A stretch of 64,000 nucleotides of DNA from assembly GCA_903842235.1 (NCBI GenBank), contig CAIMLG010000105.1, positions 1,621 to 65,620 on the forward strand, given 5' to 3'. Shown one piece after another: positions 5,101 through 33,019 of this stretch. This stretch comes from an uncultured Verrucomicrobia subdivision 3 bacterium (GTDB lineage Bacteria; Verrucomicrobiota; Verrucomicrobiia; Limisphaerales; UBA11358). The translations under genes were made by a program, and so were the position numbers. Below the pieces are notes generated by a model. That model ran no database searches, was not told the DNA's origin, and saw only the letters and a program-made list of their open reading frames with translations. The first letter of the stretch is position 1, and the number at the start of each line of letters is the position of its first letter.

Positions 5101-8100
5101 ACCAAATTATTTATGTAAAGATTTCCTCGATTGGCAATGGGATAGTCTGGACCGGCACCAACAGCGTTTTCCCCAATCTCTGGGATTTGAACACGACGAC
5201 CAACTGGCTGTTCGGCGGCTTGCCGGCGGTTTATATCGAGAACGTGCCGCCGGGAGACGCGGTGACTTTCAATGACGCCGGCAGCGGCCTGGTGCTGGTG
5301 AGCAACACGGTGAGCCCGGCGGGAGTGACCATCAGCAATGCGGCGGTCAACTACACGTTCCAAGGCTCCGGCCAGATCAATTCCCCCGGCGGTTTGACCA
5401 AGGTTGGGGCGGGCACCGTGACGCTGAATGTGCCCACGACCTTCGCTGGTAACACGGTGGTTTCCAATGGCACGATCAGCCTTGGCGCCAGCCAAACCTT
5501 TGCCAATTTGTCCGGCAACAGCGCCGTGACTGCGCCATCGGGCGCGGTGACGCTCACGGTCAACGAAGGCTTGACCAGCGCCTTCTCCGGAAACCTTTCG
5601 GGGGCGCTGGGCCTGACCAAGACCGGGACCGGCCAGATCACGCTGACCGGCAGCAATAACTTCTCCGGCAATCTTTTTGTGAAAGCCGGCGGGTTGACGC
5701 TGGATTCCGGGTCCGTGGCCGCGAACAATTTCTGCAGCGTGGGCCAGAACGGCACGGACAACGGCGCGCTGACCTTGAAAGGAACGGCAGCCTGCACCAT
5801 CAACAACGACTTGAACGTGGCTGACGTGGGCGCCTCCGTGGGCACCTTGAATATTCAGGACACGGCCAGTCTGATCATGAACTCGTTCTTTATCGGGTCG
5901 GCCAACGGGGCCGGTTCGACCGCCAGCGGCACGGTTAATCAAACCGGTGGCACGGTGACGCAATTGACCACCGGTGCGGGCACATTCTGCATTGGTGGCC
6001 GAGTCCAGACCAACTCGGTCGGTGGGGTGGGCGTCTATAATTTGAGCGGCGGCACTTTGATCGCTGCTTCGGGAATCCGCGTGGGCTCGGCGGGTCCGGG
6101 AACTTTTAATCAGAGCGGCGGAACAGTGATCCCCAACGGCGACTTAAATATCGCCCGCTTCGCCGGGGCGACCGGCACCTACAATTTGGATGGCGGCACC
6201 CTCGTTTCCCGCGTGACTTCGAGCACCGGTGCCAACGCCGTCTTCAATTTTAACGGCGGCGTGTTGATGGCGGCCGGGGATAACACCACCTTCATGGGTA
6301 GTTTGTCGCAGGCCAATGTCCGAAATGGCGGCGCGGTGGTGGACACCACCAACTTCAATGTCACCATCGTGCAGAGTCTCCAGCACAGCCCCCTCGGTGG
6401 TGATAATGCCATTGATGGCGGCTTGACCAAACGCGGCAACGGCACGCTGATCCTGAGCGGATCGGGTTCCACCTACACCGGGCCAACCGTGGTTGCGGGC
6501 GGCACGTTAAGCCTCCTGCCCAATGCAGTTGTCAGCCTGAACAACACGACGGTCAGCAATGCCGCCTTGAGCCTGACCATGAACTATGGCTCGGGAACTT
6601 GTTATGCCGCCGACCTGACCTGGGCCGGCAACTCGGCCTTGAACGTGAACTATGGCCTCGTGCTGGGTGTGCCCCCCGTGGCCCTGGTTGCCAGCGGCAA
6701 TCTGACCGCTTCCGGCACCAACATGATCAATCTGAACGCCTACGGATTGACGGTGGGCCAATATACCTTGGTCGCCTATTCCGGCCCCCCGCTCGCGAAC
6801 CTGAGCCACTTCAGTTTGGGAACCATCCCGGTGGGCGTTACCGCTAGCTTGTCCAACAACGTCGCCAATTTGTCCGTTGACCTCGTCGTCTCGGCGGTCG
6901 GGATGGCGAACTGGATTCCGCTGGCAAATTCGGATGCCGCCGGCGCCTCCAGTTTCAACGCGGCGCTCAACTGGCTGGATGCAAGTGTGCCGACGGCGGG
7001 CAACGGCTATTTCACCCGCAACTTTACCCTGCGTTCGCCGGCGGATGCCAACGCCTACACCTTTGGCGGCAGCATTTTGGCGGTGGATGCGGGCGGCCGT
7101 TTCTTAATGAAGGGCAACAATGGTCAGGTCATCACGGTTACCAACCTCGTGTTGAACGGCGGCTTGGTGGACTTTGCCGTGACCACGGCGGATAACTTTA
7201 CCGAAACCCTGGCCGGCAACATCTCGCTGAACGGCGGCCTGACCAGCTATCTGGGGGCGGCGGGGGCGGCGGGGGCGGCGGAAACCTTGTTTGTGGACGC
7301 GCCGGTCAGCGGCAGCGGCAATCTCCAACTGGGCGGCCCCAGCGTGAATAGCGGCTCGGATGTCGGCGTCGTGGTGCTGGCGGCCACCAACACCTATACC
7401 GGCACCACGACCGTGGCTGGCGGAACCCTGCTCATCAACGGCGCCAACGGTAACTCGGCTATCACCGTGAACGCCAATGCCACGCTGGGCGGGATCGGTT
7501 CGCTCGCCGGGCCGGTCACCGTGCAATCCGGAGGCAACCTGGCCCCGGGCATTCCGGCTCGCGGCGCTTTGACGGCCGCGATTGGGACGTTGACGGCTGG
7601 CGGCACCACCGTGGGCGGCACGGTGCTGATGAAAATGGATCGCAATTCGGCGCCGACCAGCGACCGGTTGGCCGCATCCAGCGTGGTGGTGAACCCCGGG
7701 GCAACCCTCACGGTCAACAACCTCGGCTCGACCAATCTGGTGGCGGGTGACACGTTCGCGTTGTTCAGTTCGCCGGTCAGCGGGACGTTTAGCACGGTCA
7801 ATCTACCCGCCTTGCCCGTGGCGAGCTTGGCGTGGACCAACCGGCTGGCCCTGGACGGGACCATTGCCGTGGTCGCCCTGGCGACCATCAATACCAACAG
7901 CCCGGTCCTCACCAATTCCTTCTCCGCTGGCTCAGTGAATTTGTCCTGGCCGGCCGATCACACGGGCTGGACGCTGCAGGTCCAGACGAATTTGTTAGGG
8001 GATGGCCTGGGCACCAACTGGGTGGATGTGCCGGGTTCGGTGCTAACCAACGAGGTTGCCATTCCGGTGACCATCACCAATGGAGCGGTGTTTTTCCGCT

Positions 8101-8111
8101 TGAAATTGTAA
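2193..8111 (+). CDS. Giant autotransporter-associated beta-strand repeat exoprotein, main part (continuation of 1429..2196)
   Basis: The ORF is open over 2007..8111, but 2007-2189 encodes Arg/Gln-rich out-of-frame noise overlapping 1429..2196. Recognisable protein begins at GVTLGAGNGTLDVGSGATL (2190). It has dozens of PF12951-type units (G.L.LSGANTY[TS]G.T.I..G.L), an Ig-like segment, a second head module (~6910), a neck module and an F-F-R-L tail. Confidence 0.85.
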   Translation: MTLGAGNGTLDVGSGATLIIADPITGGGKLTKNSAGSLILSGANTYTNGTTLNAGILNVQNSSGLGTNGTVTCVTRNGGIQLQGGVNLPAAVNFTLSNDGTGASPQIPYALDNVSDNNTINGVITLTTGGGGAAIQSDSGALLITGIIRIASGQSSRGITLQGVSTAANMISGAITNGANGVNSVTKTNAGTWTLSGMNLYAGPTIISGGTLALSGSGSISSSPLISIASGATLDVSGLSSTFTLGAGQSLSNSVGTVNGSMATAAGATIYPATVGAAGTLTVNGNIDLSAGGIVTFDLSTSAAGGNDLVAVGGNLTLSSSDFIHINALSGALDTADYVLFSVSTGTTIATTPVLVWDGSIPGNYLNYSLLKVGNNVVLRYSSSTAPSVTASVNPASAIRNQAVVVTANVTKGSGNIVSVTVDLTQIGGSATAGLALDSANSTPPTYIYTNTFFVPASVTLGNKSLTVVATDDSSPTPLTGTYVITPYTINPNAVTWDGGGVDNKWTSNANWTSDIGPGYIGDSVAFDTGNQLAADMDTNYTVAGVTFNGGAGAFVIGSSTGSTLTSSGGMVNNSSSPQTLNVPVVISAAQTFNAVSGNLTLTTNVTLGGNTLTVDGAANTTLSGLIAGTAGLTKNGGGTLVLSSANTYGNNGGSDTLVNAGTLVLGNDLALGTSRLNISDGGTVQSADSSAHIITNRLNFGGVAGANAIFGGTGNLKFTGSAANGTDKILTVNNPQTEFSGGLSGASKRTVAGPGTLILSGANTYSAGTTINPGATLQLGSGGTTGSLSTSGTIDDEGTLIFNRSDSIVQGTHFSSAPIIGGGAVVQAGSGTTTLNAANTYSGATTISGGELFITPAYQAGGAVTVGDNAKFGVSANSVSTSATIGSLNLGGGGATTLDFAYGFSGNPTNAALAAGAVTLNGTSAIRVSGSFALGAFPVLKYGSLSGAFASTVAGPRGVTATLSNDVVNQIIYVKISSIGNGIVWTGTNSVFPNLWDLNTTTNWLFGGLPAVYIENVPPGDAVTFNDAGSGLVLVSNTVSPAGVTISNAAVNYTFQGSGQINSPGGLTKVGAGTVTLNVPTTFAGNTVVSNGTISLGASQTFANLSGNSAVTAPSGAVTLTVNEGLTSAFSGNLSGALGLTKTGTGQITLTGSNNFSGNLFVKAGGLTLDSGSVAANNFCSVGQNGTDNGALTLKGTAACTINNDLNVADVGASVGTLNIQDTASLIMNSFFIGSANGAGSTASGTVNQTGGTVTQLTTGAGTFCIGGRVQTNSVGGVGVYNLSGGTLIAASGIRVGSAGPGTFNQSGGTVIPNGDLNIARFAGATGTYNLDGGTLVSRVTSSTGANAVFNFNGGVLMAAGDNTTFMGSLSQANVRNGGAVVDTTNFNVTIVQSLQHSPLGGDNAIDGGLTKRGNGTLILSGSGSTYTGPTVVAGGTLSLLPNAVVSLNNTTVSNAALSLTMNYGSGTCYAADLTWAGNSALNVNYGLVLGVPPVALVASGNLTASGTNMINLNAYGLTVGQYTLVAYSGPPLANLSHFSLGTIPVGVTASLSNNVANLSVDLVVSAVGMANWIPLANSDAAGASSFNAALNWLDASVPTAGNGYFTRNFTLRSPADANAYTFGGSILAVDAGGRFLMKGNNGQVITVTNLVLNGGLVDFAVTTADNFTETLAGNISLNGGLTSYLGAAGAAGAAETLFVDAPVSGSGNLQLGGPSVNSGSDVGVVVLAATNTYTGTTTVAGGTLLINGANGNSAITVNANATLGGIGSLAGPVTVQSGGNLAPGIPARGALTAAIGTLTAGGTTVGGTVLMKMDRNSAPTSDRLAASSVVVNPGATLTVNNLGSTNLVAGDTFALFSSPVSGTFSTVNLPALPVASLAWTNRLALDGTIAVVALATINTNSPVLTNSFSAGSVNLSWPADHTGWTLQVQTNLLGDGLGTNWVDVPGSVLTNEVAIPVTITNGAVFFRLKL
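7254..7280 (+). repeat. In-frame 9-bp x3 tandem repeat (GGGGCGGCG)3 encoding GAAGAAGAA
   Basis: Read directly from the sequence at 7254-7262, 7263-7271 and 7272-7280, inside the giant gene. Confidence 0.9.
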
Positions 8112-8193: not shown

Positions 8194-8982
8194 GTGATGA
8201 ATCTAACCTCCCCGCGTAAACAGGCCTTTACCCTGATCGAACTTCTGGTCGTGATCGCCATCATCGCCATCCTGGCGGCCATGCTGCTGCCGGCCCTGGC
8301 CAAGGCGAAGGAAAAAGGCAAACGCGCCCTGTGCGTCAGCAATCTCCGGCAGATTGCCGTGGGGATGACCGTTTATGCCGGTGACAATAACGATCTGGTT
8401 GTTGAGTCGCACATCGACGGGGCCTCGAAGCAGGGAGTGCAGAATGTTTTGGAGCCGAGTTCAGCCTCCGCTGCTGCCAGCGTGCAGTTGATCGTAAACA
8501 CCAACAGCGGAACTCGTTGTATTTGGGCCTGTCCGAATCTCCCGCAACTGCCCGGCTATGAGCCCGGCTCTTATAATCAATTTGACATCGGCTACCAATA
8601 TTTCGGCGGCACGGGCTTCAAAAATTGGGTCAACACGCTCGGCAAATTTACCGGCCATAGTCCCATTAAACTGGCCCAAGCCAAGCCGCATTGGGTCTTG
8701 GCGGCGGATTGTGTCATGAAAATAAACGGCGCCTGGGGCAAAAAGGATCCAACCCGCACGCTCTATGACAATATGCCGCCGCATAAGTCCGGCGGCGCCT
8801 TGCCGGCCGGCGGCAATGAAGTTTTCTGCGACGGACATGTGGAATGGATCAAGGCGCAATCCATGTATTATCTGACCACGTGGCAGACGGATGGCACCCG
8901 GATTTGTTACTTTTATCAGGATCCGCAGGATTTTGACGCGACCCTGCAGGCGGCGCTTAAATTCCTGGCCTTCAAACCTTGA
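8194..8982 (+). CDS. Prepilin-type N-terminal cleavage/methylation domain protein (pseudopilin-like, H-X9-DG-family-like C-terminus)
   Basis: Canonical N-terminus [27 protein letters not shown]. The C-terminal [15 protein letters not shown] resembles the DG-H motif of the H-X9-DG family, but the His spacing is not canonical (H-X15-DG). Confidence 0.9.
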
Positions 8983-12000: not shown

Positions 12001-14093
12001 TCAATTTCACCGCGAGCGGCTTTAATTTTACCGGCAACGGCGACGAGGCGCAGCAACGCTTGGATCAGTTTGCCGCCCTCACCGCATCGGCCAATGCCCT
12101 TTACGCACAACTGCCGGCGAATCAGCAGGCGGCGTTTTACGAGATGATTTTGTATCCGATGCGCGGGGCGGATTTGCAGAATAAAAAGATTTTGCTCGCC
12201 GAGCGCAGCCGGCTGTGGGCCGCGCAAGGCCGCGCGGCCACAACGAAGCTTGCCCTCGCCGCACAAGCCGCGCAGGACGCGATTCTGTCCGAGACGGTTT
12301 TTTACAACAAAACCAACGCCGGCGGAAAATGGAATCGCACGATGACGGTGACCACGACCGGCGAGGCCAAAAAACCTTACATCATGCCAACGCTGGGCAG
12401 CTACACCGCGCCCGGCACCGCCGGTTTAGGGGTGGCGGTGGAAGGCGCCGCCGCCGGGCTGGGCACCCATGCGGGGGTGCTGCCGACGTTCAACCCCATG
12501 GCCAACCAGGCTTATTTCATCGACGTTTTTAACACCGGCACGAGCGCGATGACCTGGACCGCGCAAAGCAGTGTGCCGTGGATCACGCTCACTCAGACCA
12601 ACGGGACTGCCGATGCGCGCCTTTGGGTCGGCATTGATTGGCCGAACGCGCCGCGCGGCTACGCCGTGCCCGGCACGATCACCATCCAAGGCGCGGGCGT
12701 GACCAACACCGTGGACGTGCAGGCCTTTTATCCGCTCTCGCTCAATCTCGTGACGCTCCCGCCGGCGGTGGAGAACAATGGCGTGGTGAGCATTGAAGCG
12801 GAGAATTTCACGTCGCAACAGGACGGCACGAACGGCGTCGGCTGGCGGAGGTTGACTCGCGCGTGCGCCTCGCGCGACGGCATGACCATCCTGCCGGTCA
12901 CGGCGGCAGTCATGGATCCGGCGGCGATTACGAGCAACACGCCGGCGCTCACTTACCAGTTTTACGCGTTCAGCACGGGGGCCACAACGGTTCAGTTGGC
13001 GTGCCTGCCCACGCACAAGATCACCTCTGACCACGTTGGCTGCCGCTACGCGATTTCACTCAACGGCGACCCGCCGCAAGTTGTGGACATCAATGCCGAT
13101 GCGGATTCCGCCGCCTGGAACATCAATGTTCTGCGCGCCGCCGCCTATGGCACATCCCATCACCTGATCGCCAACCCCGGCCTGCAAACGCTGCAGGTCT
13201 GGATGATTGATCCCGGGGTGGTGCTGGACAAGATGACCGTTTCGATCAATAGCGGAGTGTTTGAGGCCGAGAATCAGGCCTTTGCCGCCTCGACGGCTTA
13301 CCACACATTCTCAGAAGCCGGAGTGAGTGGGGACGGGGCGGTCTCGTTGGATGCCACCGGGGTCGGACAATCCATTGCGTTCACTTTGCCTTACCTCGCG
13401 GCTGGCACCTACGACCTGGCGGTGCGCGTCAAAATGTTGAATACCAGAGGTATCGCACAAATGGCAATCGGCGACACCGCCAGCGGACCGTTCAGCAAAC
13501 TCGGCAGCCCGCTGGACTTCTACGCTGCATCTGCCACCTACACAAATCTCGTGACGCTTCGAGTCACCAATTCAACGGCTGGTCCGAAATACCTCCAATT
13601 CACGATTACGGGCAAAAACGCCGCCTCCAGCAGTTATCAAATTGTCCTCGATAAATTCACGTTTGTTCCCGTCATGGCCGGAACCCCGGCGCCCTCGCTC
13701 GGAGGCTGGCGCCTGGCCTACTTTGGCACGACCGACAATGCCGGCGATGCCGGCGATGCCGCGGATCCCGATCACGACGGGATTCCCAACCTGATCGAAT
13801 ATGCGACGGGCAGCTATCCGACCGCCGTCAGCGGGGCCTTACTGGCGGCAGCCATTACAAATAATCATCTGGCCGTGACCTTCAACCGGGCCAAAGACGC
13901 CCCCGGCGTTACGATTCATGTGGCGGCGGCGAACAGCCTGTCCGACTTGTTGTCCGGCGGAACGGAAATCTGGTCGAGTGCCGTTGTGCCTTATCCCGCA
14001 GGTTTGGCGCCGGTCGCGCCGGTTACGGTCGTTGATCCGCAAGAAAACACCAACACTACGCGCTTCCTCCGGTTAAGCGTGTCCCGTCCTTGA
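9021..14093 (+). CDS. Modular exoprotein: head plus neck modules, Ig-like segment, GH115-like alpha-glucuronidase domain, CBM-like domains, TSP3-like D-x-D motif tail
   Basis: Signal-like N-terminus; ATG 9036 is an alternative start. The head and neck modules are paralogous to 6910-7910. The GH115-like core shows YRGIFLNDEDWGLNPWA, LRLHANYIWPAMH and GTSHHEPMLRN. The C-terminus has DPDHDGIPNLIEYATG and ends RFLRLSVSRP. Confidence 0.88.
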   Translation: MPILKMTRSGRGRACDLGRRIGFGRFRLAVAALGLLGCLPLRAASVTLVTNDAYGASSFAAAGYWSNGAAPSPTNIYSTAGFSLRSPADTAAYGFGGGSLTVETGGRLLMKGVGGQALTVTNLILNGGLADFANGGADYYTETLAGNITLQAGTRSYLGALSGAPAFETLVVAAAISGSGDLQLGGASVNAGADNGVVIFAGTNSSTGTTTVAGGTLLINFPNGNGNVYVTNGGTLGGTGRLGGPLVVLAGGKLAPGIPARGALAASLGALTVSSPATNAGMVVMRIDRSGTTPNDRLVASSIVISPGATLTVTNVGTTNLAPGDTFALFSPPISGAFDTVSLPPLPNPVLIWTNQLAVNGTIAVVATNLVIAGAASPPVVAAGQAIWLTVTVIPAANPTSTGLAVTANLTPIGGSGAQTFYDDGTHGDGAAGDHIYSFSTTVASNAVPGSANLNVSASDDQGRAVGTTIPLTVVASGAPFMGAPFLSLLETNAAGSLPVVAGGQGTPIYYGGNDATVVGIAAGALRDDVQRVTGVTPLLSSNPPAATANAIFIGTIGKSALIDGLIAAGKIHVGSIQGQWESYLATVVTNPVAGVGRALVIVGSDRRGTTFGVFGLSEAIGVSPWYWFGDVPVTQRMALYVGAGTYTEPSPGVKYRGIFLNDEDWGLNPWAEQTFDPSGQIGPTTYARIFELLLRLHANYIWPAMHDVTKAFYTVPGNRDMAENYAIVIGTSHHEPMLRNTSEYNTTTLGAYNYWTNRANIYNFWEQRVIETATNENTYIVGMRGIGDAAMIAPAGTTTQQKADELQNVIIPDQRQMIHDHVNANPALVPQVFVPYKEALTLYQTGMQVPDDITLAWPDDNHGYIRELSGAAERARGGGSGVYYHLSYWGGPVSYLWLLTTPPAMTCEEMMKAWDYQARRIWVVNVGDLKPGEIGMEFFLRLARNPEAFRNFDPHAYLAQWAARNFDAPNAEAIATLLEEYYRLNIITRPEQLNFTASGFNFTGNGDEAQQRLDQFAALTASANALYAQLPANQQAAFYEMILYPMRGADLQNKKILLAERSRLWAAQGRAATTKLALAAQAAQDAILSETVFYNKTNAGGKWNRTMTVTTTGEAKKPYIMPTLGSYTAPGTAGLGVAVEGAAAGLGTHAGVLPTFNPMANQAYFIDVFNTGTSAMTWTAQSSVPWITLTQTNGTADARLWVGIDWPNAPRGYAVPGTITIQGAGVTNTVDVQAFYPLSLNLVTLPPAVENNGVVSIEAENFTSQQDGTNGVGWRRLTRACASRDGMTILPVTAAVMDPAAITSNTPALTYQFYAFSTGATTVQLACLPTHKITSDHVGCRYAISLNGDPPQVVDINADADSAAWNINVLRAAAYGTSHHLIANPGLQTLQVWMIDPGVVLDKMTVSINSGVFEAENQAFAASTAYHTFSEAGVSGDGAVSLDATGVGQSIAFTLPYLAAGTYDLAVRVKMLNTRGIAQMAIGDTASGPFSKLGSPLDFYAASATYTNLVTLRVTNSTAGPKYLQFTITGKNAASSSYQIVLDKFTFVPVMAGTPAPSLGGWRLAYFGTTDNAGDAGDAADPDHDGIPNLIEYATGSYPTAVSGALLAAAITNNHLAVTFNRAKDAPGVTIHVAAANSLSDLLSGGTEIWSSAVVPYPAGLAPVAPVTVVDPQENTNTTRFLRLSVSRP

Positions 14094-16453: not shown

Positions 16454-16779
16454 AAGGCGGGCGCTACATATGCCAACCAAGGCAGATTGCCGGCAGGCAA
16501 CCAATGGATGAGCCTTTTTGAGGCTTATGGAGGCAAGATGGTCCCGGCTTATGAAAAGCACCAAGCAAGACACCTCCAAAGAGCCGTCTTAGGTGGTTCG
16601 TTATACACTCCGTTACGGACCTTACGGCGAAGTGAACCAGCCATATCAATTGTTTGGACGCATTGGCGATTGGAGGCCGGAGGTTCGATTCCTTGGTGCC
16701 CGGTTTTGCAGGCTATTATCACTTCGCCTTGTTCAGACCGGTTTTACACAAGCCTCAACCTCAAATTCAGAATCAAGCC

Positions 16780-19700
16780 ATGAAGAGTATGCTGATCGGA
16801 ATTGCATGTTTTGTTTCTGGGACGTCGAAACGATGGCCTGTCTTTTCCTTTGTGTTGGTCTGTGTCTTATCGATAGGCATGGCCGGTCACGGCCAAGTGC
16901 TTCGATGGGACAATATGCCAGCCAAGGCTGGGGTTCAGGATGGCGGTGGCAATTGGAGTAATTCAAGCACCCTGACCAACTGGTGGAATGGGACAAGGAA
17001 TGTTGCCTGGATCACTGGTGCCTCAGCAGTAATTGGCTCGAATTTGACTTCCAGCGCAACGATTACGCTGGCCAATTCCATCGTCGCTGGAGGCATGATT
17101 TTCTCAAATAACTTTACCATCACCGCAGCCGGACAAAGTGTGCCTGCCTACACGGTTGCGGGTATCGCTCCCAACACAAACCTGACAGTAATGGGGAGTC
17201 CAGCTGAATTAGTCATGGCGGATAATTGTCCCAATCCACAATCTTATCCGGGGGCCTCTGGCCAAGTGACGATTAATGCCTCCCTCGTAGCCACTGGCGG
17301 AATAAGTGTGGTAACTAAGGCCTCGGGGTGGCAGTCGCAAATCGCCTTTAACAACCCGACGAATTTCATCAATGGCACGATGGAAGTCGGAACCCCGGGG
17401 GCTACGGATTACAACAGTGCTACCGCCTTGCAGGTGCAGTTCAATAACAGCGGTTTGGGCGCGGGAACTTTGACGGGTTGCACCAACCTGATCATCCACA
17501 CCAACTCCGGCGTGCTGCTGCGCGGAACCAGTGGCGGTTATACCCTCAACTGGCCGAAGAATTTCATCATTTCCGGCGATGGCATTCCGGCTTCGTTCTT
17601 CTGCTTCGGCGCCATCAACTTTTCCGGCAACAATGGCTGCACCTTTCCTGCGAACATCCAACTGGCCGGGGACAGCACGGTGATTTTGACCTGGGGCGTT
17701 AACAATGCGGCGGTCACCAACGCCGGCAACATTACCGGCGCGGGCCGCCTGCGCTTGAATCAATCCGCCAACCGGCCCACGACGGGTTCCCGGGTGGTTT
17801 TGAAAGGCACGAACACTTATGTGGGGGCTACGATTATAGACGGGGGCCTGGTGGTGCAGGCCGCGTCTGGCGCGAACAACCGATTGCCGGGCGGAACAGC
17901 GCTTCAATTGGGCAATTCAGGACTTTTCTATGCGGCGAACAGCAGCGGGACGCCGCAATCGAGCTACAATGGTTTTGGTGGGCTGATCTTGGGGGACCTG
18001 GGCGGGGCGAGTTCGCAAATGCTGAGCGGGCTGACCAGCGACACGACGGCCTTGGGGCAGCAAAGTTATGTGGCGGGTGGGAATGCGGCGGCGGTCTCCA
18101 CGCTAACGGTAAGCAACAACGGGGACAACATCTATATCGGCACGCTGGGCGGGACGGCCGCACCCGCGAGCAATCTAGCGTTGGTGAAGAGCGGCGCCGG
18201 CACGCTGAAGTTGCACGGCACGAACTTGTGCGCGGGCGGATATGCGATCAATGGCGGAACGGTGGTGTTTGGGGATGGTGTGGCGGACTATCCCTTGACC
18301 GGCCCTATTACCAATAATGCCACCGTCACTTTTAATGTCGCCAGCCGCCAAACCTATACCGGTGTGATCAGGGGCGGCGGCGCGCTGAATTTAAATGGCT
18401 TTGGCGTCTTGACCTTCGCAGGAACCAATGCCGGAACCGGCGCATTTAACATTCGATCCGGCACGCTGGCGGTTAATACCGATGCGCAGTTAAGCGGCGT
18501 GCCGATGGTGTTGTCACCGGGTGCGAGTTTGCAGGTGAATCGCACGGCAAACGAAAACAGTCTGGCGGTCGCTGCCTTGACGGCAACCAATGCGACCCTC
18601 AGTTTTAATCTGGCGGGATATGCCATCAACAGCTCCCCGTTGTTGGCGGTGCTGGGAGCTTTCGTTAATACGGGAAATTCCACAATTAACCTGCCCAATC
18701 CGGGTTCGATTGCGGCCGGAAGGGGATCGCTGATCACCTATGGGAGCTATCAGAGCAATGCTTTCAGTTCTTTCACGGTGAATGGCCTCCGGCCGGGCAT
18801 GGTTGCCCGCGTCGAGGACAACCCGGGGAATCATTCGCTGGACCTGGTGGTTTCCATCGTTGATCCCACGGTCACGGCCATCGTTCAGTCGGGCCATGTG
18901 TTAAACTTGTCATGGCCGGCCGCCTGCACGGGCTGGCAATTGCAGGGCCAGACCAATCCGTTAAGTCTCGGTTTGAGCAGCAATTGGTTCAATCTTTCCG
19001 GAACTGAGGCGACAAATAGCTATGCGATGGGAATTGATCCGACCACGCCGACGGAGTTTTTCCGCCTCATCTACCCGCCGATGCCGCCAATTCAAATGCC
19101 AATTTTCTCGAACTCGGCATTCGTCTTTTACCCCGACCGGATGGAGTGCTCGGATGTATACGCCGGGGTTTATCGCTCCACCAATGGCTTGACCATCACC
19201 CAGGATGGAAATCCAAGCTATGCTTGGACAACCCCGCAGATGAACCAGCTCTCTTTGCAAACACCCTACCCCATTCTGGATGGCGCGTTTGCTCTGGCGG
19301 TGGATGCGCTGTTCAAAGTGCGGGCGCCAGCCGGAACCGCCAGTGCCATGCTGGGGGGATACAGTCCCGGCAGCGTTTATTATGTTCCCTATTTCTATAT
19401 GACCCACGGCGCCGATATCCGCGAATACACCCGGGATTTCTCCCAGGAAATCCAATGGGGAGATATCGCCGTCATTGATCCGGTCACCACACGCGGAACA
19501 CTGATACGCCGGTGCGATATTACCAATAACATCATCCGCGAGGATGCCGTGGTCACCTCGGACAGCATTCATTTCATTTCCGCAGCATGGGAATATTTCA
19601 AAATCACCGGCGACACTAATTTGCTGACGACCTGTTGGCGTTGCATGTGGAACACCATGACGAACAAGGAAACGACCTATTTGGATGGCGACGATGGTCT

Positions 19701-20631
19701 TTGGTATGGCGGTCCGTGGAGTGATAATGTTTCGGGCTATGTGACAACCGGGGATTTCAACAATCGATTGACGCAGTTGAAGAGTCTGTATGGCAATCTT
19801 TTGGTGACGATGGCGTGGCGTGATCTCGGTCAAATTGCCGCCACGCTGGGGTTCGCCAATGAGGCCATCCTGTGCGGCCAGAAATCGTCCGCCAGCAAAG
19901 TTGCCATCAATGCCAAACTCTACCGACCGGAATTTGGCACCTATTGCTATTACATGAATGTGGTGTCCAACACCGCTTACAACTACCGTGAAGATATTTC
20001 AGCCGGATTGCTATATTTATCCGGCGTCGCCAGTGTACAAGCCTGTCTAAATTACCATTCAAATTTCGCAGCCACCCCTTACGGTTATCGCAATGTGGAC
20101 CCCATCATGCCCGCCGGTCAGACATCATATCATGGTGGAAATGTTTGGGAGGATGAAGCAGGCTTTCACGGATGGGCAATGGCGCTGCTTGGCCGACCTG
20201 AAGAACTGGAGCCCTTCATTTTCTGGCATGCGCGCGCGGGTCTACCGTTAAAAAAATGGCAGGAGGGAACCATCAATCCCTCCACGGGCCAATTTCACTC
20301 GAATTATACCTGGGTCAGCTGGGGGGCCACGGGCTATACGTGCTATTGGACGCGTGGAGTGTTTGGCATCACCTACAATCCCGATGGCATTCAATTTGCC
20401 CCCTGCGTGCCGAATTCATTCGGGAATAATTTTTATTCCGTGTTGAACCACTTCACGTATCGAAACTGCAACCTGCGAATAATTTTGATCGGCTGTGGCA
20501 CGGTGGTTCAGATCATTCTCGTTGATGGCGTGCCCGCCAGTAGCGTGCCCGCCACGCTGACCGGCAATCATGTGATTCAAATAAAAATGGCGAATTCAGG
20601 TTCGCCAAATATACCGCCTCCACAGGAGTAA
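16780..20631 (+). CDS. Beta-strand repeat exoprotein with an internal tail-like module and a C-terminal (alpha/alpha)6-barrel glycosidase-like domain
   Basis: The likely start is MKSMLIGIACF (16780); the ORF is open from 16654. It has PF12951-type repeats, then an SWP...GWQLQGQTNPL...EFFRLIYP module at ~18880-19080. A Pro-rich linker PPMPPIQMP follows, then a domain with DGDDGLWYGGPWSDN and SYHGGNVWEDEAGFHGWA, which resemble six-hairpin glycosidases. The exact GH family is not assignable by eye. Confidence 0.8.
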   Translation: MKSMLIGIACFVSGTSKRWPVFSFVLVCVLSIGMAGHGQVLRWDNMPAKAGVQDGGGNWSNSSTLTNWWNGTRNVAWITGASAVIGSNLTSSATITLANSIVAGGMIFSNNFTITAAGQSVPAYTVAGIAPNTNLTVMGSPAELVMADNCPNPQSYPGASGQVTINASLVATGGISVVTKASGWQSQIAFNNPTNFINGTMEVGTPGATDYNSATALQVQFNNSGLGAGTLTGCTNLIIHTNSGVLLRGTSGGYTLNWPKNFIISGDGIPASFFCFGAINFSGNNGCTFPANIQLAGDSTVILTWGVNNAAVTNAGNITGAGRLRLNQSANRPTTGSRVVLKGTNTYVGATIIDGGLVVQAASGANNRLPGGTALQLGNSGLFYAANSSGTPQSSYNGFGGLILGDLGGASSQMLSGLTSDTTALGQQSYVAGGNAAAVSTLTVSNNGDNIYIGTLGGTAAPASNLALVKSGAGTLKLHGTNLCAGGYAINGGTVVFGDGVADYPLTGPITNNATVTFNVASRQTYTGVIRGGGALNLNGFGVLTFAGTNAGTGAFNIRSGTLAVNTDAQLSGVPMVLSPGASLQVNRTANENSLAVAALTATNATLSFNLAGYAINSSPLLAVLGAFVNTGNSTINLPNPGSIAAGRGSLITYGSYQSNAFSSFTVNGLRPGMVARVEDNPGNHSLDLVVSIVDPTVTAIVQSGHVLNLSWPAACTGWQLQGQTNPLSLGLSSNWFNLSGTEATNSYAMGIDPTTPTEFFRLIYPPMPPIQMPIFSNSAFVFYPDRMECSDVYAGVYRSTNGLTITQDGNPSYAWTTPQMNQLSLQTPYPILDGAFALAVDALFKVRAPAGTASAMLGGYSPGSVYYVPYFYMTHGADIREYTRDFSQEIQWGDIAVIDPVTTRGTLIRRCDITNNIIREDAVVTSDSIHFISAAWEYFKITGDTNLLTTCWRCMWNTMTNKETTYLDGDDGLWYGGPWSDNVSGYVTTGDFNNRLTQLKSLYGNLLVTMAWRDLGQIAATLGFANEAILCGQKSSASKVAINAKLYRPEFGTYCYYMNVVSNTAYNYREDISAGLLYLSGVASVQACLNYHSNFAATPYGYRNVDPIMPAGQTSYHGGNVWEDEAGFHGWAMALLGRPEELEPFIFWHARAGLPLKKWQEGTINPSTGQFHSNYTWVSWGATGYTCYWTRGVFGITYNPDGIQFAPCVPNSFGNNFYSVLNHFTYRNCNLRIILIGCGTVVQIILVDGVPASSVPATLTGNHVIQIKMANSGSPNIPPPQE

Positions 20632-20751
20632 CATTTTCCAGTGAAAACTTTACCTGTCCATCTCCGAGGCTGTTTAAAGCGTGCAAGTGCGCGGGTGAAA
20701 ATCACGCGATCTCCCGCCCTTGGTGATCCGGCGGTTTGGCGCACTGCCAAG

Positions 20752-23700: not shown

Positions 23701-23973
23701 GCGCAATCGCATAACCTCACGGTTCCAGACACCAACACCAGCTACACGGCGAGTTTCGTGCAGCCGACCATGGATATCAGATCAAGCGATGGCGGGCTAG
23801 ACCTATCATGGCCGGGTTGGGCTGCGCCCATGACGCTTGAGTTCACGACGGACCTGATGCCGCCAGTCCTCTGGTCCGGGTTGGCCGTGCCAATTATTCC
23901 AACCAACGGCATGCTTGGCGTTCACTTCTCGATGACCAACACGATCCAGTTTTACCGGTTGAAGCTCCCATGA
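20752..23973 (+). CDS. GH43 endo-arabinanase-like enzyme with two LamG/concanavalin-like domains, Ig-like segments and an F-Y-R-L tail
   Basis: Signal peptide MLTAILGLLVLLCASSFAQP; the ORF is open from GTG 20641. GH43 motifs are HDPS, FWAPDV, YYSVSTFGSQ.SAIG, NTIDPC...GSYWNGI and IEASY. There are two copies of LVNGAS...W.RIFD(F/L) (Laminin_G_3-like). It ends IQFYRLKLP. Confidence 0.9.
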   Translation: MLTAILGLLVLLCASSFAQPYQLRGHLGAHDPSTVVKCKDRYYLFATGSGITSRSSADKIFWSAGPKVFANVPAWTTNAVPGFTGTFWAPDVLYVSNRYCLYYSVSTFGSQISAIGLVTNPTLDPTDPNYLWTDQGPVITSTNGLAYNTIDPCLSWDASGKLWLCFGSYWNGIYITQLDPATGLRITPNSTTFRLADSSSIEASYIFRQGSYYYLFVNWGSCCDGVDSTYNIRVGRSLSITGPYLDKNGVDMVNGGGTLFMRASGKYSGPGHVGILSDGGTLFLTHHYYDANSWDTGYNAYGTPRFAMLPLSWTTDGWPVYDNSWSAVYNFQSDAREENGQFSGLLVNGASVKLDPTYGHALDLNGTNQYAWLPPGVAYAQTFAAVVKWRGGSQWQRIFDFGTDTSKTVMLTPAASGNVLRLDINPGGNLQTLQWTQPLPMNVWTHVAVTLDGSKGILFVNGAAVATNNSMTTLPLNVTSQTNHLGRSKFAVDPYFNGQYASFRAYSRALTAAEIVAPVPVIASPADGSACWPGGTIRFQGRATDFMNLPLGAGNLTWQIQYINNGATNIVLSPVTGLNEGVYTVPANGTNGLYRIFLMATDNLGRKATNSVSAYASATVGSNAWSSFYPLTSNALDASNNFNGTLVNGASFVNDPTRGNVLNLTPAPKQYVKLATGAGSAQTVSGWVKWNGGANWQRIFDLSKNNNCFYYLTPCNSSTQLQCSITPDYATYKRTIEMQGALPTNRWVQVAVTMNGREGILCLNGDAVGVNNSVNLLPSDIAGTNCVLGKSQFSADPYFDGQISAVRLNSKVLSRAELVAPQPLILQPTNTTKFAGGVPLVFIGSAKDYSGAILSPGAFSWNSQLFSNGLAYAAFGPWTGITNGAYLVPTNAATVTNIFYRINLTVTDTNDNQQSVSADVQPRTSVLSFTTVPAGLNISLDGQSLTTSTSVVAVAGMSRTMGVPSPQFKAGTNFPFVMWSDGGAQSHNLTVPDTNTSYTASFVQPTMDIRSSDGGLDLSWPGWAAPMTLEFTTDLMPPVLWSGLAVPIIPTNGMLGVHFSMTNTIQFYRLKLP

Positions 23974-27000: not shown

Positions 27001-27495
27001 AACGGCACGATGCGGATGAAGATTGACCGCTCGGTGACGCCCACCAGCGACAAGTTGTCTGCCCCTAGCGTTGTTGCCAATGCGGGATCTGCTTTAGTGG
27101 TTACCAACCTCGGGCCGACCAATTTTTCGGCTGGCGACCGATTCACGCTTTTCAGCGTGCCCATCAGCGGCGCGTTTAATTCGGTCAATCTTCCGCCATT
27201 GCCTGATGCGAGTTTGGTCTGGGCCAACAACCTTGCCGTGGACGGCTCGATTGCAGTGATTCCGGCGGTCGCCATCACGCCAACCAATCTGGTGGCGCAA
27301 TTTTCGGTGAACACGCTGACCCTCTCGTGGCCGGCTGACCATACCGGGTGGCGGTTGCAGACGCAGACGAATCCGTTGGTCACCGGGTTGAACTCGAACT
27401 GGTTTGATGTCGCAGGCGCAATAAGCACGAATCAAATGATCCTCCCGTTTTCGCCCGATGCGGGGGGCGTCTTCTTCCGTTTGATCTATCCGTGA
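24016..27495 (+). CDS. GH76-like alpha-1,6-mannanase fused to head module, beta-strand repeats, neck module and F-F-R-L tail
   Basis: N-terminal domain with WFWGRANQMEMLVDLYE, NDDIMWMVIACSRAY, GGGLYWKY and KNACVNGPGAIAAYL, which are GH76-like. Downstream are PF12951 repeats and modules paralogous to 4230-4740 and 7490-8108. Confidence 0.88.
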   Translation: MNSRTVKFPMLFRLVGWICLVTSGLPMICFNAGAYTAADAQTMVDSFNNAFYFTTSGRGYFRDSTDGGTTWFWGRANQMEMLVDLYEQTTNTAYLTQFSSLYNGFAYDYGTSWTWNAYNDDIMWMVIACSRAYQKTGNNTYRSVAKSNFDACYTRAWSTNGGGGLYWKYPDNSSKNACVNGPGAIAAYLIYQNYGDTNYLAKAESLYQWERAKLFNSGSGSIADYYGSDNAAHGGATSYNQGTFIGAANFLGYTNDAILAANYTRNSMGTGGQLPNYDENSDLGNFNAIFVRWMVRFMKDRGLQRDYQLWLQQNANAAWNVRRPSDNISWSKWWDQTPDDTRYSVGCWGSVMVMNLVPPTQNPGGSVVTLNTSDVAGSSSFESALNWSDGAAPSSAKNYVVNIARTLRTPADGSHHTFAGSSLTLSNGAVLAFKNTSGGRYVSIGTDLFLDGGEVHNWSGNSASLGGKVTLKAGGGKIDPQGNSFSFPALIGGPGALRIGATAVSPLNGTVNLNGVNTYTGGTVIEAPHTVQIDNSACLGSSTGSLAFSNSVGRGYGTMNLNGIDLTIGKLSGAGGTIMNSKSGTTNTLTIGNGDATGGIYQGIITDGGGMLGVTKAGTGSIALSGANTFSGGMTMDAGQLNINYGGSSSANSAIGIGVLTILANTTLDNTSGTEVTLRPNNAQVWNGNFTYAGTANSLNLGTGAVSLAATRTVTVSGNRLTAGGVISGAGGLAKMGPGTLALTGANMFTGTVDLQAGTLAIGNDSALGTGPLNFNGGTLGATIQSIDGAARMITNAFNFGGSAGANAIFGGTGNLKFTATPNANGTAKTLTVNNPRTEFSGVLGGASARTVAGTGILIFSGANTYSLGTTINPGATLQLGNGGTSGSLSTSGTIDDEGTLIFNRSDSIVQGTHFSSAPIIGGGSVIQAGSGIVTLNAANTYSGSTMVGNGVLGGTGSIPGMLNVQPGGTLAPGMPSWGILPAVMGTLTAGNTTINGTMRMKIDRSVTPTSDKLSAPSVVANAGSALVVTNLGPTNFSAGDRFTLFSVPISGAFNSVNLPPLPDASLVWANNLAVDGSIAVIPAVAITPTNLVAQFSVNTLTLSWPADHTGWRLQTQTNPLVTGLNSNWFDVAGAISTNQMILPFSPDAGGVFFRLIYP

Positions 27496-27856
27496 GCAGT
27501 CCCTTGAGGCTTCTCTTCCAGTCGGCATCGTGCGAGAGGTCTTTCAAATTAAAAACATCCGTGGGGCAGGGCACGGTTCCGGCTGTCGTTGCCCCCAAGG
27601 AAACACCAACACCGCACGTTTTCTCCGCTTGAAGATACCCAACCCATAGCCGGCGATGCGTCACCCGGCGGGGTGAGGCAAAAGCACCCGGCGGCGGCTC
27701 CCGGGACAGTTTGAAGAACTATTTCCGGGCTGGTGCGCGCTTCGGGCGGCAGCATGGCAGCGGATTCCGGTTAGCGCTTCGGGGATTTGTTTGATTCAAC
27801 CAGAGTTGTTGGTTAAGTTGAAGGAGAATAAATTCCATCCATTTTACCGGCCGGCA

Positions 27857-28441
27857 ATGCCCAATTTTGAAGCCCAACATGATGTGACGCGCGTGCTGCA
27901 GTCGCAGTCCCCGGAAGGCGGCGTTTCCGAGGAGTTATTGCCTTTGGTTTACAAGGAATTGCGGGTATTGGCGGCCTCGCGAATGGCGCGGGAAATGGGC
28001 GGTCAAACCCTGCAGCCCACCGCCTTGGTGCACGAGGCTTGGCTGCGGCTCCAATCCAATTCCGCCCCCGTCTGGCACAACCGGGCGCATTTTTTTGGTG
28101 CGGCGTCCGAGGCCATGCGGCGAATTCTCATTGAACGGGCGCGGCGTAAATTACGGCTGAAGCGGGGAAATCGGGCTGAGCACGTCAGCATTGATAATGT
28201 GGACGTGGCCCAAACCCTCCCCGACGACCGCATTTTGCTGATTGACGAGGCGTTGACGCGTTTGGGGGCGGCCGATCCCGAACTGGCGCAGATTGTGACG
28301 CTGAAATTTTTCGGCGGCTTAACCAACGTGGAAGTGGCTGAGGCTCTGGGGGTCACCGAGCGCACCATTTACAATAAATGGACCTTTGCCAAGGCTTGGT
28401 TGTTAAAGAGCATTAACGAAGAATGGAATGGGGAGGCATAA
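27857..28441 (+). CDS. ECF-type RNA polymerase sigma factor (TIGR02999 / kinase-linked ECF type)
   Basis: DVTRVLQS...LLPLVYKELRVLAASRMAREMGGQTLQPTALVHEAWLRL, and a region-4 HTH (LTNVEVAEALGVTERTIYNKW). ATG 27857 is preferred over the TTG at 27791. Confidence 0.9.
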   Translation: MPNFEAQHDVTRVLQSQSPEGGVSEELLPLVYKELRVLAASRMAREMGGQTLQPTALVHEAWLRLQSNSAPVWHNRAHFFGAASEAMRRILIERARRKLRLKRGNRAEHVSIDNVDVAQTLPDDRILLIDEALTRLGAADPELAQIVTLKFFGGLTNVEVAEALGVTERTIYNKWTFAKAWLLKSINEEWNGEA

Positions 28442-28508
28442 CCCCGATGCCTTTCCGGTTTTCCCCCCTGCCAGCGCATTATTGTGTGAAAAACTGCTGT
28501 CTCAACCC

Positions 28509-30749: not shown

Positions 30750-33019
30750 GCAAGCCAAAAAGTTCTTTGATGCCTTTCCTGAACTTGATTCGGAGAAACC
30801 TGAATTACTTGTGCTTCGTGGTCATTATTGCGCAGTTGGTTGCATGCAGCCCAGCCAGCGGGACAGACATACTCGAGGCCGCCACGGCCGCGGCGTCGGG
30901 CACGGATTGGAATCAAGGCAGCCAGTGGAATGGAGGAAATCCGCCGACCAGCGGAATCAACTATGTCCTCTATACCAACACTTCAAATAATTCGACATTA
31001 TCCAGCTACTACGGTGTCAGTTTCGGAACCGGTTATATCCGGACGCCGGCCAACAATGGCGCGAGTGGGTTTCTTGGGGATAATCTTATCCTCCCCCCTG
31101 GCACTGAAATATTGTTGAAACAAACATCGGGCGGATCCGCCAGTGCCAACATCATTTTCACCAATTACAATAATATCAGCCCCGTCGGGCTGTATCCTCT
31201 CGTTCGTTTGGGGCCCAGCACCTCGGGCGGAACGGCGACTTTGAATGGGACCATCACCCTCCGGGTGGATTCGTATGTGGCCAATGATGCTGGCGCGACC
31301 ATGACACTCAATATTGCCTCGCTGGTGGCGGGGGGGGGCAATTTGACCCTGGTATCAGCCAATGCCGGGACTTTTTCTACGACCCGGACCAATTTGGTGA
31401 CGGGTGACTGGAGCGGATTCACCGGCACGTTGAACATTGGAAACTCGACGGTGGCCGGGGTGGTGGAACTGAACAACTCAGCGTGGAATGTGAACATGGC
31501 GCTCACTATGCCCAGGGCGAACGGGGTGTTGGTATTGGACAAGGGGATCAGCGTGAAAGGCTTTTCTATCGCCAACAACACGGTGTCGGCGGGAACTTAT
31601 ACGCCGGGGCAATTGACGGCCTTGGGCTTTGGTGGAAGCTTTTCAGGCACGGGCTCGCTGACGGTTGGTTTTACCGCGCCTCCGGGTTTGGCCGCAACGC
31701 CCGGCAATGCCCAGGTGGCGTTGACCTGGCGACCGGTGTATGGCGCGGCCGGCTACAACGTAAAGCGTTCGACGGTCAGCGGCGCGGAAACCACCATCAT
31801 TAATGTGGCCAATCCGAATTATACGGATACGGGACTGGCCAACGGCACGACTTATTACTACCAGGTATCGGCGACGAATATTGCGGGCACCAGTGCTGAT
31901 TCGGCCGAAGCCAACGCCACGCCCAACAGCACGGTGTCTTCTCCAAAAATAATCAAGGTTTATCTGCAAGCCGGGCAATCAAACTCGGACGGTCGGGCAT
32001 TGACCAATGGGCTGCCGTCTTATTTGCTCAACCCACAAAATGACGTGCCGTTTTATTATTACCTGACGGGTGGTGCCGCCAATGGCGATGGCACGCTGGG
32101 CACCCTTTCGCCGTTGCACCCCGGCGCTTCGGCGCTCGGCGGCGGCACCACTTTCGGCCCGGAGTTGACCTTTGGGCGGACGCTTGCCGATTACTTTGCC
32201 CTGACCAACGGCGCTTCGACCAATACCGTTATGGTGGCAATCATAAAATATGCCCACGGCGGCACTTCGTTGGTTTCGGGTTGGGCCGCCAATGGGAATA
32301 GTTCCACCAACGGTGACGGTCCTGATTACCTCATCTTTCAAAAGGTTGTCAGCCATGGGTTGTCCCGTTTGGCTGCGGCGTATCCCAATACCAGTATTGA
32401 ACTAGATGGCATGATCTGGGTGCAGGGGGAAAGTGACATTGACGCCGGATCCAGTGCGTCTGCCGCCTACGGTATGAATCTGGAAAAGTTCATCAATGAT
32501 GTGCGCTCAACGTATGCCGCAAATCAACCCTTCGGCACGAACCTGCCGTTTTTTCTTTCCCGAATTTCCGCCAATCAAACCGTCTATTCCTCGCCGCCGG
32601 ATGCCGATTATCCGAACTATCTTTTATTGCGCGCGGGTCAACAATTCGCAACTACAAATCTGCCTAATGTCTTTATGATCAATACGGACGCATCCCAATT
32701 TTCCACAGCGACACCCTGGTCGAGCCCCGGGCTACATTTTGACACTCAGGGACAGCAATCAATAGGCGTGGCCTTTGGGCAATCCGTGATCAAGGGCCTG
32801 CCGGCGCCACGATTGCAACTCCCGCAGCGGGCTGATGGTGGCTGGCTTGTGGGTTTTTCAGGGGAATCAGGAACGTGGCATTCAATTGAGCGTTCATCTG
32901 GTATTAACGGAACATGGATTTTGCTCACAAATATTCTGGTTGGGGCGTCTTGGTTCACAAATTACGTTGACCCAAGTCCGCTATTTCCTTATGGCTTCTA
33001 TCGCGTAAGCCGACCATAG
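30746..33019 (+). CDS. Exoprotein: head-like module, fibronectin type III domain, SASA-type (sialate O-acetylesterase-like) carbohydrate esterase, F-Y-R-V tail
   Basis: The ATG at 30746 overlaps the kinase stop (ATGA). It has a lipoprotein-like N-terminus (LVACS) and an FN3 segment (AQVALTWRPVYGAAGYNVKRS...TYYYQVSATN). The esterase motifs are QAGQSNSDGRA, YAHGGTSL and WVQGESD. It ends GFYRVSRP. Confidence 0.88.
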   Translation: MSKPKSSLMPFLNLIRRNLNYLCFVVIIAQLVACSPASGTDILEAATAAASGTDWNQGSQWNGGNPPTSGINYVLYTNTSNNSTLSSYYGVSFGTGYIRTPANNGASGFLGDNLILPPGTEILLKQTSGGSASANIIFTNYNNISPVGLYPLVRLGPSTSGGTATLNGTITLRVDSYVANDAGATMTLNIASLVAGGGNLTLVSANAGTFSTTRTNLVTGDWSGFTGTLNIGNSTVAGVVELNNSAWNVNMALTMPRANGVLVLDKGISVKGFSIANNTVSAGTYTPGQLTALGFGGSFSGTGSLTVGFTAPPGLAATPGNAQVALTWRPVYGAAGYNVKRSTVSGAETTIINVANPNYTDTGLANGTTYYYQVSATNIAGTSADSAEANATPNSTVSSPKIIKVYLQAGQSNSDGRALTNGLPSYLLNPQNDVPFYYYLTGGAANGDGTLGTLSPLHPGASALGGGTTFGPELTFGRTLADYFALTNGASTNTVMVAIIKYAHGGTSLVSGWAANGNSSTNGDGPDYLIFQKVVSHGLSRLAAAYPNTSIELDGMIWVQGESDIDAGSSASAAYGMNLEKFINDVRSTYAANQPFGTNLPFFLSRISANQTVYSSPPDADYPNYLLLRAGQQFATTNLPNVFMINTDASQFSTATPWSSPGLHFDTQGQQSIGVAFGQSVIKGLPAPRLQLPQRADGGWLVGFSGESGTWHSIERSSGINGTWILLTNILVGASWFTNYVDPSPLFPYGFYRVSRP

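Follow-up and report, generated by a model that had tools for sequence, protein, structure and literature searches.

Introduction

The closest described counterparts of the element treated here are the C-terminal domains (CTDs) of the type IX secretion system (T9SS) of Bacteroidota (type A, TIGR04183/PF18962; type B, TIGR04131), small β-sandwiches at the extreme C-terminus of Sec-exported carbohydrate-active enzymes (CAZymes) and adhesins. Genomes encode many paralogous carriers of these domains, which mark a subset of the exported proteins. We describe a module with the same traits, hereafter the tail, in a stretch of 64,000 nucleotides (the window; contig CAIMLG010000105.1 of assembly GCA_903842235.1, positions 1,621 to 65,620) from an uncultured bacterium of Verrucomicrobiota subdivision 3. 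Members of this group degrade polysaccharides and are abundant in soil and freshwater, and we know of no account of how their very large exoproteins and CAZymes are placed at or beyond the outer membrane. The window contains a block of large plus-strand genes for exported proteins, three of which end in the tail, which may credibly be a new tag for sorting or docking.

The tail differs from the T9SS CTDs in that it has no sequence similarity to them and occurs in a different phylum. Other described systems resemble it in part. Fibronectin type III (FN3) domains (PF00041 clan) are its best fold matches, and an iterated profile of the tail reaches a true fn3 domain; unlike these, the tail is 72 amino acids (aa) long, stops at strand F, has a loop of the sequence WPxDHxGW, ends in F[FY]R[LM]xxP-COOH and is strictly terminal. 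Dockerins of cellulosomal enzymes are usually C-terminal modules as well, found on diverse CAZymes and docking to a common partner, but they consist of Ca-binding duplicated EF-hand-like helices, whereas the tail is a β-sandwich for which no cohesin-like partner is known. The PEP-CTERM/exosortase and LPXTG/sortase systems share the C-terminal sorting logic and the many carriers per genome; their signals, however, combine a short motif, a transmembrane helix and a basic tail, whereas the module described here is a folded domain free of transmembrane helices. The cargo recalls autotransporters (type Va), since it is dominated by passenger-type PATR/TIGR02601 β-helix repeats and the tail sits where the translocator barrel would be, but the carriers have no PF03797-type barrel. 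As a 72-aa sandwich cannot form a pore, a separate route would be needed. Finally, at the tips of type IV pili and type II secretion systems (PilY1/PilC adhesins with minor pilins; GspK-I-J), a large non-pilin exoprotein is encoded beside a prepilin-type gene, as is the case here; the present locus differs in having a single DUF1559/HX9DG-like pilin, no minor-pilin operon and no PilY1 domain.

Results

A Module Shared by the C-Termini of Exported Proteins

The tail is a compact module of approximately 72 aa with the end F[FY]R[LM]xxP. In the canonical copy, at the C-terminus of the protein with a glycoside hydrolase family 76 (GH76) domain and PATR repeats (…LSWPADHTGWRLQTQTNPL…VFFRLIYP-stop), the end of the module is the last residue of the protein, and the match to the family profile reaches 112 bits (E = 3e-34). 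The giant PATR β-helix protein ends in a second canonical copy (…LSWPADHTGWTLQVQTN…AVFFRLKL-stop; 106 bits). The copy of the GH43 protein (…LSWPGWAAPMTLEF…IQFYRLKLP-stop; 54.5 bits, E = 4e-16) represents a divergent subtype lacking the D-H loop, to which the metagenomic fragment P0074 also belongs. A fourth copy is internal (…LSWPAACTGWQLQGQTN…EFFRLIYPP; 94.7 bits). Pairwise identity among these four copies is 31–51%.

When the window was scanned in six frames with the 54-sequence family profile, exactly these four copies were found (E-values between 4e-16 and 3e-34), followed by a match with an E-value of 0.2. Chance or low complexity as the origin of the similarity is ruled out by such E-values (about 1e-15 to 1e-34). 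Recent gene conversion of tails within the window was likewise rejected, as the DNA repeats cover PATR segments only and include no tail. Members of the family were defined by a significant match to the 54-sequence profile (profile A3) together with an F[FY]R[LM] end at most 5 aa from the stop. The three terminal copies fall within this definition, and the fourth matches the profile at an internal position.

The restriction of the tail to the end of proteins is strong. Among the best cluster representatives retrieved, a copy lies at most five residues from the C-terminus in 147 of 148. A six-frame scan with hidden Markov models (HMMs) of 79 genome loci and the window (880 kb) gave 98 copies, and 94 of the 96 that could be evaluated end 0–4 codons before the stop. 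The same holds for copies that had not been selected by the search, with 12 of 13 evaluable copies in terminal position and a weak 20.7-bit match as the exception. The motif F[FY]R[LM]xxP forms the exact end of 99 out of 110 metagenomic fragments, and the commonest endings among the best representatives are VFYRLVYP, VFYRMVYP and VFFRLVYP. A preliminary description of this DNA had proposed that the tail is position-restricted on otherwise different cargo and should be searched with an HMM for terminal bias; these counts agree with that proposal and extend the restriction far beyond the window. All peptides quoted there were recovered on translation, but two of its intervals, 27290-27492 and 32815-33016, are 1–2 nt out of frame and contain stop codons as written, the in-frame modules being 27277-27492 and 32798-33016. 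The features discussed in this text are listed in Table 1.

Table 1. Coordinates within the window of the tail copies, of two C-termini earlier assigned to them and of associated features.
Feature	Position	Strand	Context
Tail module, canonical	27277..27492	+	C-terminus of GH76 + PATR protein, open reading frame (ORF) 24016-27495
Tail module, canonical	7896..8108	+	C-terminus of giant PATR β-helix protein, ORF 2007-8111
Tail module	23758..23970	+	C-terminus of GH43 + 2x LamG protein, ORF 20641-23973
Internal tail copy	18859..19080	+	Within ORF 16654-20631
(α/α)6 glycosidase-like domain	19081..20628	+	Fused downstream of the internal tail copy
Prepilin-type N_methyl, DUF1559/HX9DG-like gene	8194..8982	+	Directly downstream of the tail-bearing PATR giant; PF07963, TIGR02532
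SASA esterase C-terminal 73 aa (…GFYRVSRP)	32798..33016	+	Claimed fourth tail; homology not demonstrated
GH115 protein C-terminal ~87 aa (…RFLRLSVSRP)	13830..14090	+	Claimed related; homology not demonstrated

A Large Family of Verrucomicrobiota Subdivision 3

Neither full proteins nor isolated tails gave a Pfam-A or NCBIfam match to the tail region at E ≤ 10, and a PDB sequence search with the tail profile returned nothing significant. A known curated domain was therefore rejected as the identity of the tail. The preliminary description had allowed for a known Pfam or NCBIfam domain without positional bias; no model matched at this threshold, and the bias is strong. No description of the family was found in the literature searched.

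A word-indexed search retrieved 110 metagenomic fragments, among which the informative names were those of Verrucomicrobiota metagenome-assembled genomes (MAGs) only. An exhaustive profile search of 1.84 billion cluster representatives yielded 7,517 proteins at E ≤ 1e-3 (clusters at 50% identity) and 3,874 at E ≤ 1e-10. In GTDB species genomes, a search for loci seeded with nine close sequences gave 358 tblastn-confirmed matches from only two narrow peptide patterns. The best 80 of these 358 are mostly labeled Verrucomicrobiota, Verrucomicrobia subdivision 3, Limisphaerales or Pedosphaera, and a single MAG contributes up to five loci to them. About eight of the 80 carry other labels (Bifidobacteriaceae/Bifidobacterium, Acidiferrales, Angelobacter), which are taken to be misassigned MAG names. 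Judged by these matches, the tail is a lineage-specific, very large and uncurated domain family of Verrucomicrobiota subdivision 3 (Limisphaerales/Pedosphaera).

Fold and Conserved Loop of the Tail

Modeling of the canonical GH76 tail with AlphaFold2 (AF2) on the 54-sequence alignment gave a predicted local distance difference test (pLDDT) score of 91, with five strands and a two-residue bridge, which we assign to A, B, C, (C'), E and F, the bridge taking the C' position. FN3 domains (Tencon, IFNAR1) were the top matches of a Foldseek comparison with the PDB (probability ≤ 0.99, E ~0.03, TM 0.5–0.57). In a local database, the iterated profile reached the true fn3 domain of the SASA protein with E = 3e-5, and the resulting alignment covers strands A–F, with "vFYR" of the tail against the F strand "TYYY" of the fn3 domain. 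PF00041 (fn3) in Pfam does not match the tails, and direct hhalign comparison of the tail with fn3 was not significant (0.5% probability). A relationship to FN3 is thus probable but remote.

The T9SS CTD models (TIGR04183/PF18962, TIGR04131) matched no tail at E ≤ 10, and the 50 best fold matches listed from the PDB are mostly of FN3 type and contain no T9SS CTD. These results bear on whether the tail is a divergent T9SS CTD that would be handled by a T9SS. The preliminary description had called the tail reminiscent of such domains, and the two are alike in position, size (~70–80 aa β-sandwich) and cargo logic (CAZymes and adhesins that combine a Sec signal with a C-terminal domain); the extreme C-terminal position combined with an N-terminal Sec signal, as in T9SS CTDs, is found in the tail family too. 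The likeness does not extend to sequence or to the fold matches listed, since no Pfam or NCBIfam model, including those of the CTDs, matched at E ≤ 10. No T9SS gene occurs within the 64-kb window, as had been stated before on the sequence and as is now supported by domain scans, and to our knowledge the system is a feature of Bacteroidota and the Fibrobacteres-Chlorobi-Bacteroidetes group, not of the Planctomycetes-Verrucomicrobia-Chlamydiae (PVC) group. We regard this origin as extremely improbable.

Strand G is absent from the tail, both in the AF2 model and in the fn3 alignment, each of which stops after strand F. This would fit an incomplete Ig-like fold that is completed in trans by the donor strand of a partner, in a manner similar to chaperone-usher systems, and the more so as the weakly matching classical FN3 repeats of the protein P0115 continue with a G strand. 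However, two other proteins, P0113 (511 aa) and P0114 (960 aa), contain six and eight tail-like 72-aa units, respectively, arranged head-to-tail with Pro-rich linkers and with the last unit terminal. Such arrays indicate that the 72-aa unit is a self-sufficient domain, and AF2 models the isolated tail confidently, which makes completion by a donor strand highly unlikely.

The most conserved loop of the tail is the B–C loop, WPxDHxGW, in which D-H is present in 299 of 344 distinct terminal sequences versus 3 of 23 internal units or repeats, a contrast that is indicative only because the internal units come from few proteins. In the canonical FN3 topology, strand F ends at the same pole at which the B–C loop is located. 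On that topology, the conserved loop and the free C-terminus should form one surface.

The main alternative to a sorting tag, possible if somewhat doubtful, is that the tail is an ordinary FN3-like accessory domain, with a role in ligand or glycan binding, adhesion or spacing, that became terminal through shuffling at the 3' end and plays no part in sorting. FN3-type modules are common in CAZymes, and examples are present in the window in the fn3 domain of the SASA protein and an Fn3-like domain in the GH3 protein. In addition, FN3 domains are the best structural matches of the tail, related units occur in internal tandem arrays, and an internal copy is tolerated in a fusion protein (see below). 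Binding modules, however, are not normally located 0–4 residues from the stop in >97% of cases, and a near-invariant loop and C-terminal motif on diverse cargo point to one partner rather than to diverse substrates. Moreover, the cargo consists mainly of non-enzymatic PATR proteins.

Cargo and Export of the Tail-Bearing Proteins

PATR repeats are present in 25 out of 41 full-length representatives, and the other cargo domains of this set are Ig, LamG, fn3, pentaxin, Big and DUF642. The cargo in the window comprises GH76 with PATR, PATR alone (nine repeats in the giant), GH43 with LamG, and PATR fused to a glycosidase. Carriers with an apparently complete N-terminus start with Sec-type signal peptides (39 of 79 by a crude hydrophobicity test), and the carrier proteins of the window start with such signals as well. 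Exported-type proteins without a tail are also encoded in the window (GH3, pectate-lyase-like and 3-keto-disaccharide hydrolase proteins); only some exported proteins are thus tagged, as expected of a sorting class.

Signals of other kinds were not detected on these proteins. Of autotransporter features, the carriers match PATR/TIGR02601 repeats only, with no barrel (PF03797/TIGR01414), PEP-CTERM (TIGR02595) was not matched in NCBIfam and the tail sequences have no transmembrane segment, and no LPXTG signal was matched in Pfam or NCBIfam on tails or carriers, in line with the preliminary description, which had reported none of the three. Dockerin (PF00404) was not matched either, and the tail model is all-β.

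In PATR carriers, a short linker separates the tail from the conserved last-PATR region. This arrangement, and the share of PATR proteins among the carriers, would be expected if the tail were a folding cap or intramolecular chaperone for PATR β-helices, taking the place of the autochaperone and barrel of autotransporters. We consider such a role very unlikely, since the tail is also found on the GH43 + LamG protein and other PATR-free cargo, and since the same PATR-end module stands at the N-terminal end of the GH115 protein with no tail attached. This module of ~330 aa precedes the tail in the PATR giant (…RSPADANAYTFGG…TIAVVA), and its two occurrences share 72% DNA identity over 211 nt (7244-7454 and 9485-9695). 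Module and tail are therefore separable.

Two further observations concern the PATR regions. The PATR giant seems to be split by a frameshift near 2190 into ORF 1429-2196 and ORF 2007-8111. The former encodes a signal peptide and the first β-helix turns, ending in …NNVSLNDANRG-stop, and coding sense past 2190 continues in the next frame (…VTLGAGNGTLDV…). ORF 1429-2196 is probably the true N-terminus of the giant, joined by a frameshift, and the split may reflect a pseudogene, a sequencing error or programmed frameshifting. A direct repeat of 300 nt with 86% DNA identity connects the giant and the GH76 protein (4362-4661 and 26485-26784), and the segments 4235-4351 and 26355-26471 are also repeated between their PATR regions, which suggests that PATR segments, but not tails, were recently duplicated or underwent gene conversion.

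The Internal Copy Lies at a Gene Fusion

The frame of ORF 16654-20631 has no stop after …EFFRLIYP and runs on into a 516-aa domain. Precomputed Pfam domains of the homologues of this domain (PF17389/PF22422) indicate an (α/α)6 glycosidase. Most of its full-length homologues are standalone proteins of 527–575 aa with a classical signal peptide of their own, directly after which the mature protein begins as the window domain does, with PIF(S/A)N…F(Y/F)xDR(M/L)ES (PIFSN..F.FYPDRMES). In the window protein, a PATR protein and its tail stand in place of this signal peptide (junction 19078-19095). The same fusion is present in the metagenomic protein P0259 at 83% identity (…KFFRLVYPPTNAANGPIFSNA…), indicating that it is real and not a sequencing error, and only a degenerate tail remnant precedes the glycosidase domain in P0260. 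The D-H pair has been lost from both fused tails, which read WPAACTGW and WSVAYTGW versus the canonical WPADHTGW.

As the downstream glycosidase occurs on its own elsewhere with its own signal peptide, we infer that the internal copy is the former C-terminus of a PATR protein, caught in a derived gene fusion. The preliminary description had taken this copy to show that the tail can be a plain domain. For the window copy a gene fusion is preferred, given the missing stop and the standalone homologues; related units do nevertheless occur in ordinary internal tandem repeats. A second case is offered by P0112 (2370 aa), which has an additional N-proximal copy with a degenerate F[FY]RL end (ELFIPELFTPH) and has the appearance of a further fusion, one that joined two successive tail genes.

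The C-Termini of the SASA Esterase and the GH115 Protein

Five tails and a related GH115 C-terminus had originally been proposed. Four of these are homologous, three terminal and one internal, and the SASA esterase and GH115 ends are not supported as members of the family. They fall outside the family definition given above and were not detected by a 4-sequence HMM, by the 54-sequence HMM or in six rounds of profile iteration. Comparison with the family profile by hhalign gave a probability of 2% for the SASA tail, over 12 terminal columns only, and of 1% for the GH115 tail, over 14 columns comprising only the last residues. In addition, a database search returned no relatives of the SASA tail, and its single-sequence AF2 model was uninformative (pLDDT 43). 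The terminal F-x-R-[LV] strand is all that these ends have in common with the true tails. Since profiles and hhalign lend them no support, the observation stands as three terminal copies and one internal copy.

The SASA esterase itself (30665-33019) carries a lipoprotein-like signal (…IIAQLVAC-S) and its true fn3 domain at aa 339–416, and its C-terminal 73 aa are an orphan without detectable homologues. The C-terminal region of the GH115 protein (~13700-14090) begins with a Ca-binding-like DPDHDGIPNLIEYATGSYP motif followed by a β-rich segment ending in RFLRLSVSRP, and may be a different, uncharacterized C-terminal module.

Genes Neighboring the Tail Genes

The protein encoded directly downstream of the PATR giant has a prepilin-type start and an HX9DG-like segment at its end. 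Similar genes directly adjoin 35 of 95 tail-bearing genes on the same strand (24 downstream, 10 upstream and 1 on both sides). Among non-tail genes, 32 of 101 immediate same-strand neighbors are pilin-like versus 3 of 300 remaining genes, an enrichment with an odds ratio of 46 (p = 3.5e-18). These neighbors encode proteins of ~250–300 aa (loci include L007, L011, L015, L016, L037, L041, L051, L069, and L077); nine examples match PF07963, of which eight show an additional weak match to DUF1559 (PF07596), mostly below the Pfam cut-off. The pilin-like neighbor is independent of PATR in the cargo, being found in 14 of 46 PATR-positive and 21 of 49 PATR-negative cases. The subtype of the tail (K[LY] versus xxP end; D-H versus none) was rejected as a predictor of the neighbor, with no association found.

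The data suggest no candidate partner other than the pilin-like neighbor. If the tail were a docking tag for the adjacent prepilin-type DUF1559/HX9DG-like proteins, the D-H loop and the free C-terminus would mediate binding of Sec-exported enzymes and PATR adhesins to the cognate pseudopilin, and a fiber similar to that of type II secretion systems or type IV pili would then export or display this cargo. We regard this specific form of docking as unlikely.

In at least seven loci (L010, L011, L016, L030, L047, L051, and L065; e.g., L010:149-808), the gene immediately upstream of the tail-bearing gene encodes a response regulator of the NarL/LuxR type (PF00072 + PF00196). The regulator and the large tail-bearing gene form a recurrent cassette, which in several of these seven loci also includes the pilin-like gene.

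Elsewhere in the window, a gene for an extracytoplasmic function (ECF) sigma factor (PF07638) overlaps by 14 nt the gene of a 773-aa Ser/Thr protein kinase (27791-30749). The pair separates the tail-bearing GH76 gene from that of the SASA esterase, and it is possible that it regulates the CAZyme block. Two housekeeping genes show unusual fusions: 41928-44003 combines an MlaA lipoprotein domain (aa 56–259) with a C-terminal extension of ~430 aa without a Pfam match, and 54627-56846 encodes an apolipoprotein N-acyltransferase (LNT_N + CN_hydrolase) with an N-terminal HAD-like domain.

Discussion

We propose that the tail serves Sec-exported proteins as a C-terminal tag for recognition or docking, read by a common partner, and assign this reading a probability of about 0.5. 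The tag would be carried by PATR β-helix proteins resembling passengers, by glycoside hydrolases and by LamG/Ig proteins, all exported through Sec. One common partner would read the conserved surface that the B–C loop (WPxDHxGW) forms with the free carboxy terminus, F[FY]R[LM]x[YL]P, and this recognition would direct the cargo either to retention or docking at the cell surface or to passage across the outer membrane. A recognition tag is predicted to lie close to the stop and to present the same loop and motif on unrelated cargo, and its motif should decay in the rare copies that become internal; these features, together with cargo dominated by passenger-type proteins without barrels, lead us to this reading. 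Homology, family size, fold class, terminal restriction, signal peptides and gene neighborhood come from the present data, whereas the reading of the tag by a partner, the identity of that partner and the placement of loop and C-terminus at one pole are inferred.

Several points weigh against such a tag. No candidate outer-membrane machinery was found, and a role in sorting is predicted from the position and conservation of the tail. The tail has a fold of a generic type, that of adhesion or spacer domains, and the tandem arrays inside P0113 and P0114 indicate that the domain can be a plain building block. The fusion protein retains a well-conserved internal copy in two genomes, and the D-H signature is missing from the GH43 tail and from ~13% of terminal copies. 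In addition, the positional statistics were obtained on biased samples, as they cover the 150 top-scoring members of the 7,517 representatives and the 80 best among 358 genome matches.

As a strictly C-terminal conserved tag with thousands of clusters, present on PATR "passengers" without barrels, the tail provides a concrete handle on the placement of exoproteins in this group. The tagged secretome can be defined by a simple profile, and the tail could be used as bait for its partner. The family, whose members are currently annotated as "hypothetical" or "fibronectin-binding autotransporter adhesin," merits a curated domain model. Through their statistical link to the tail, the prepilin-type DUF1559-like genes, which belong to one of the largest uncharacterized gene families of PVC bacteria, gain a first function that can be tested. 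If docking to pseudopilins were true, it would constitute a previously undescribed route of cargo display and give a function to the hugely expanded DUF1559-type pilins of these organisms.

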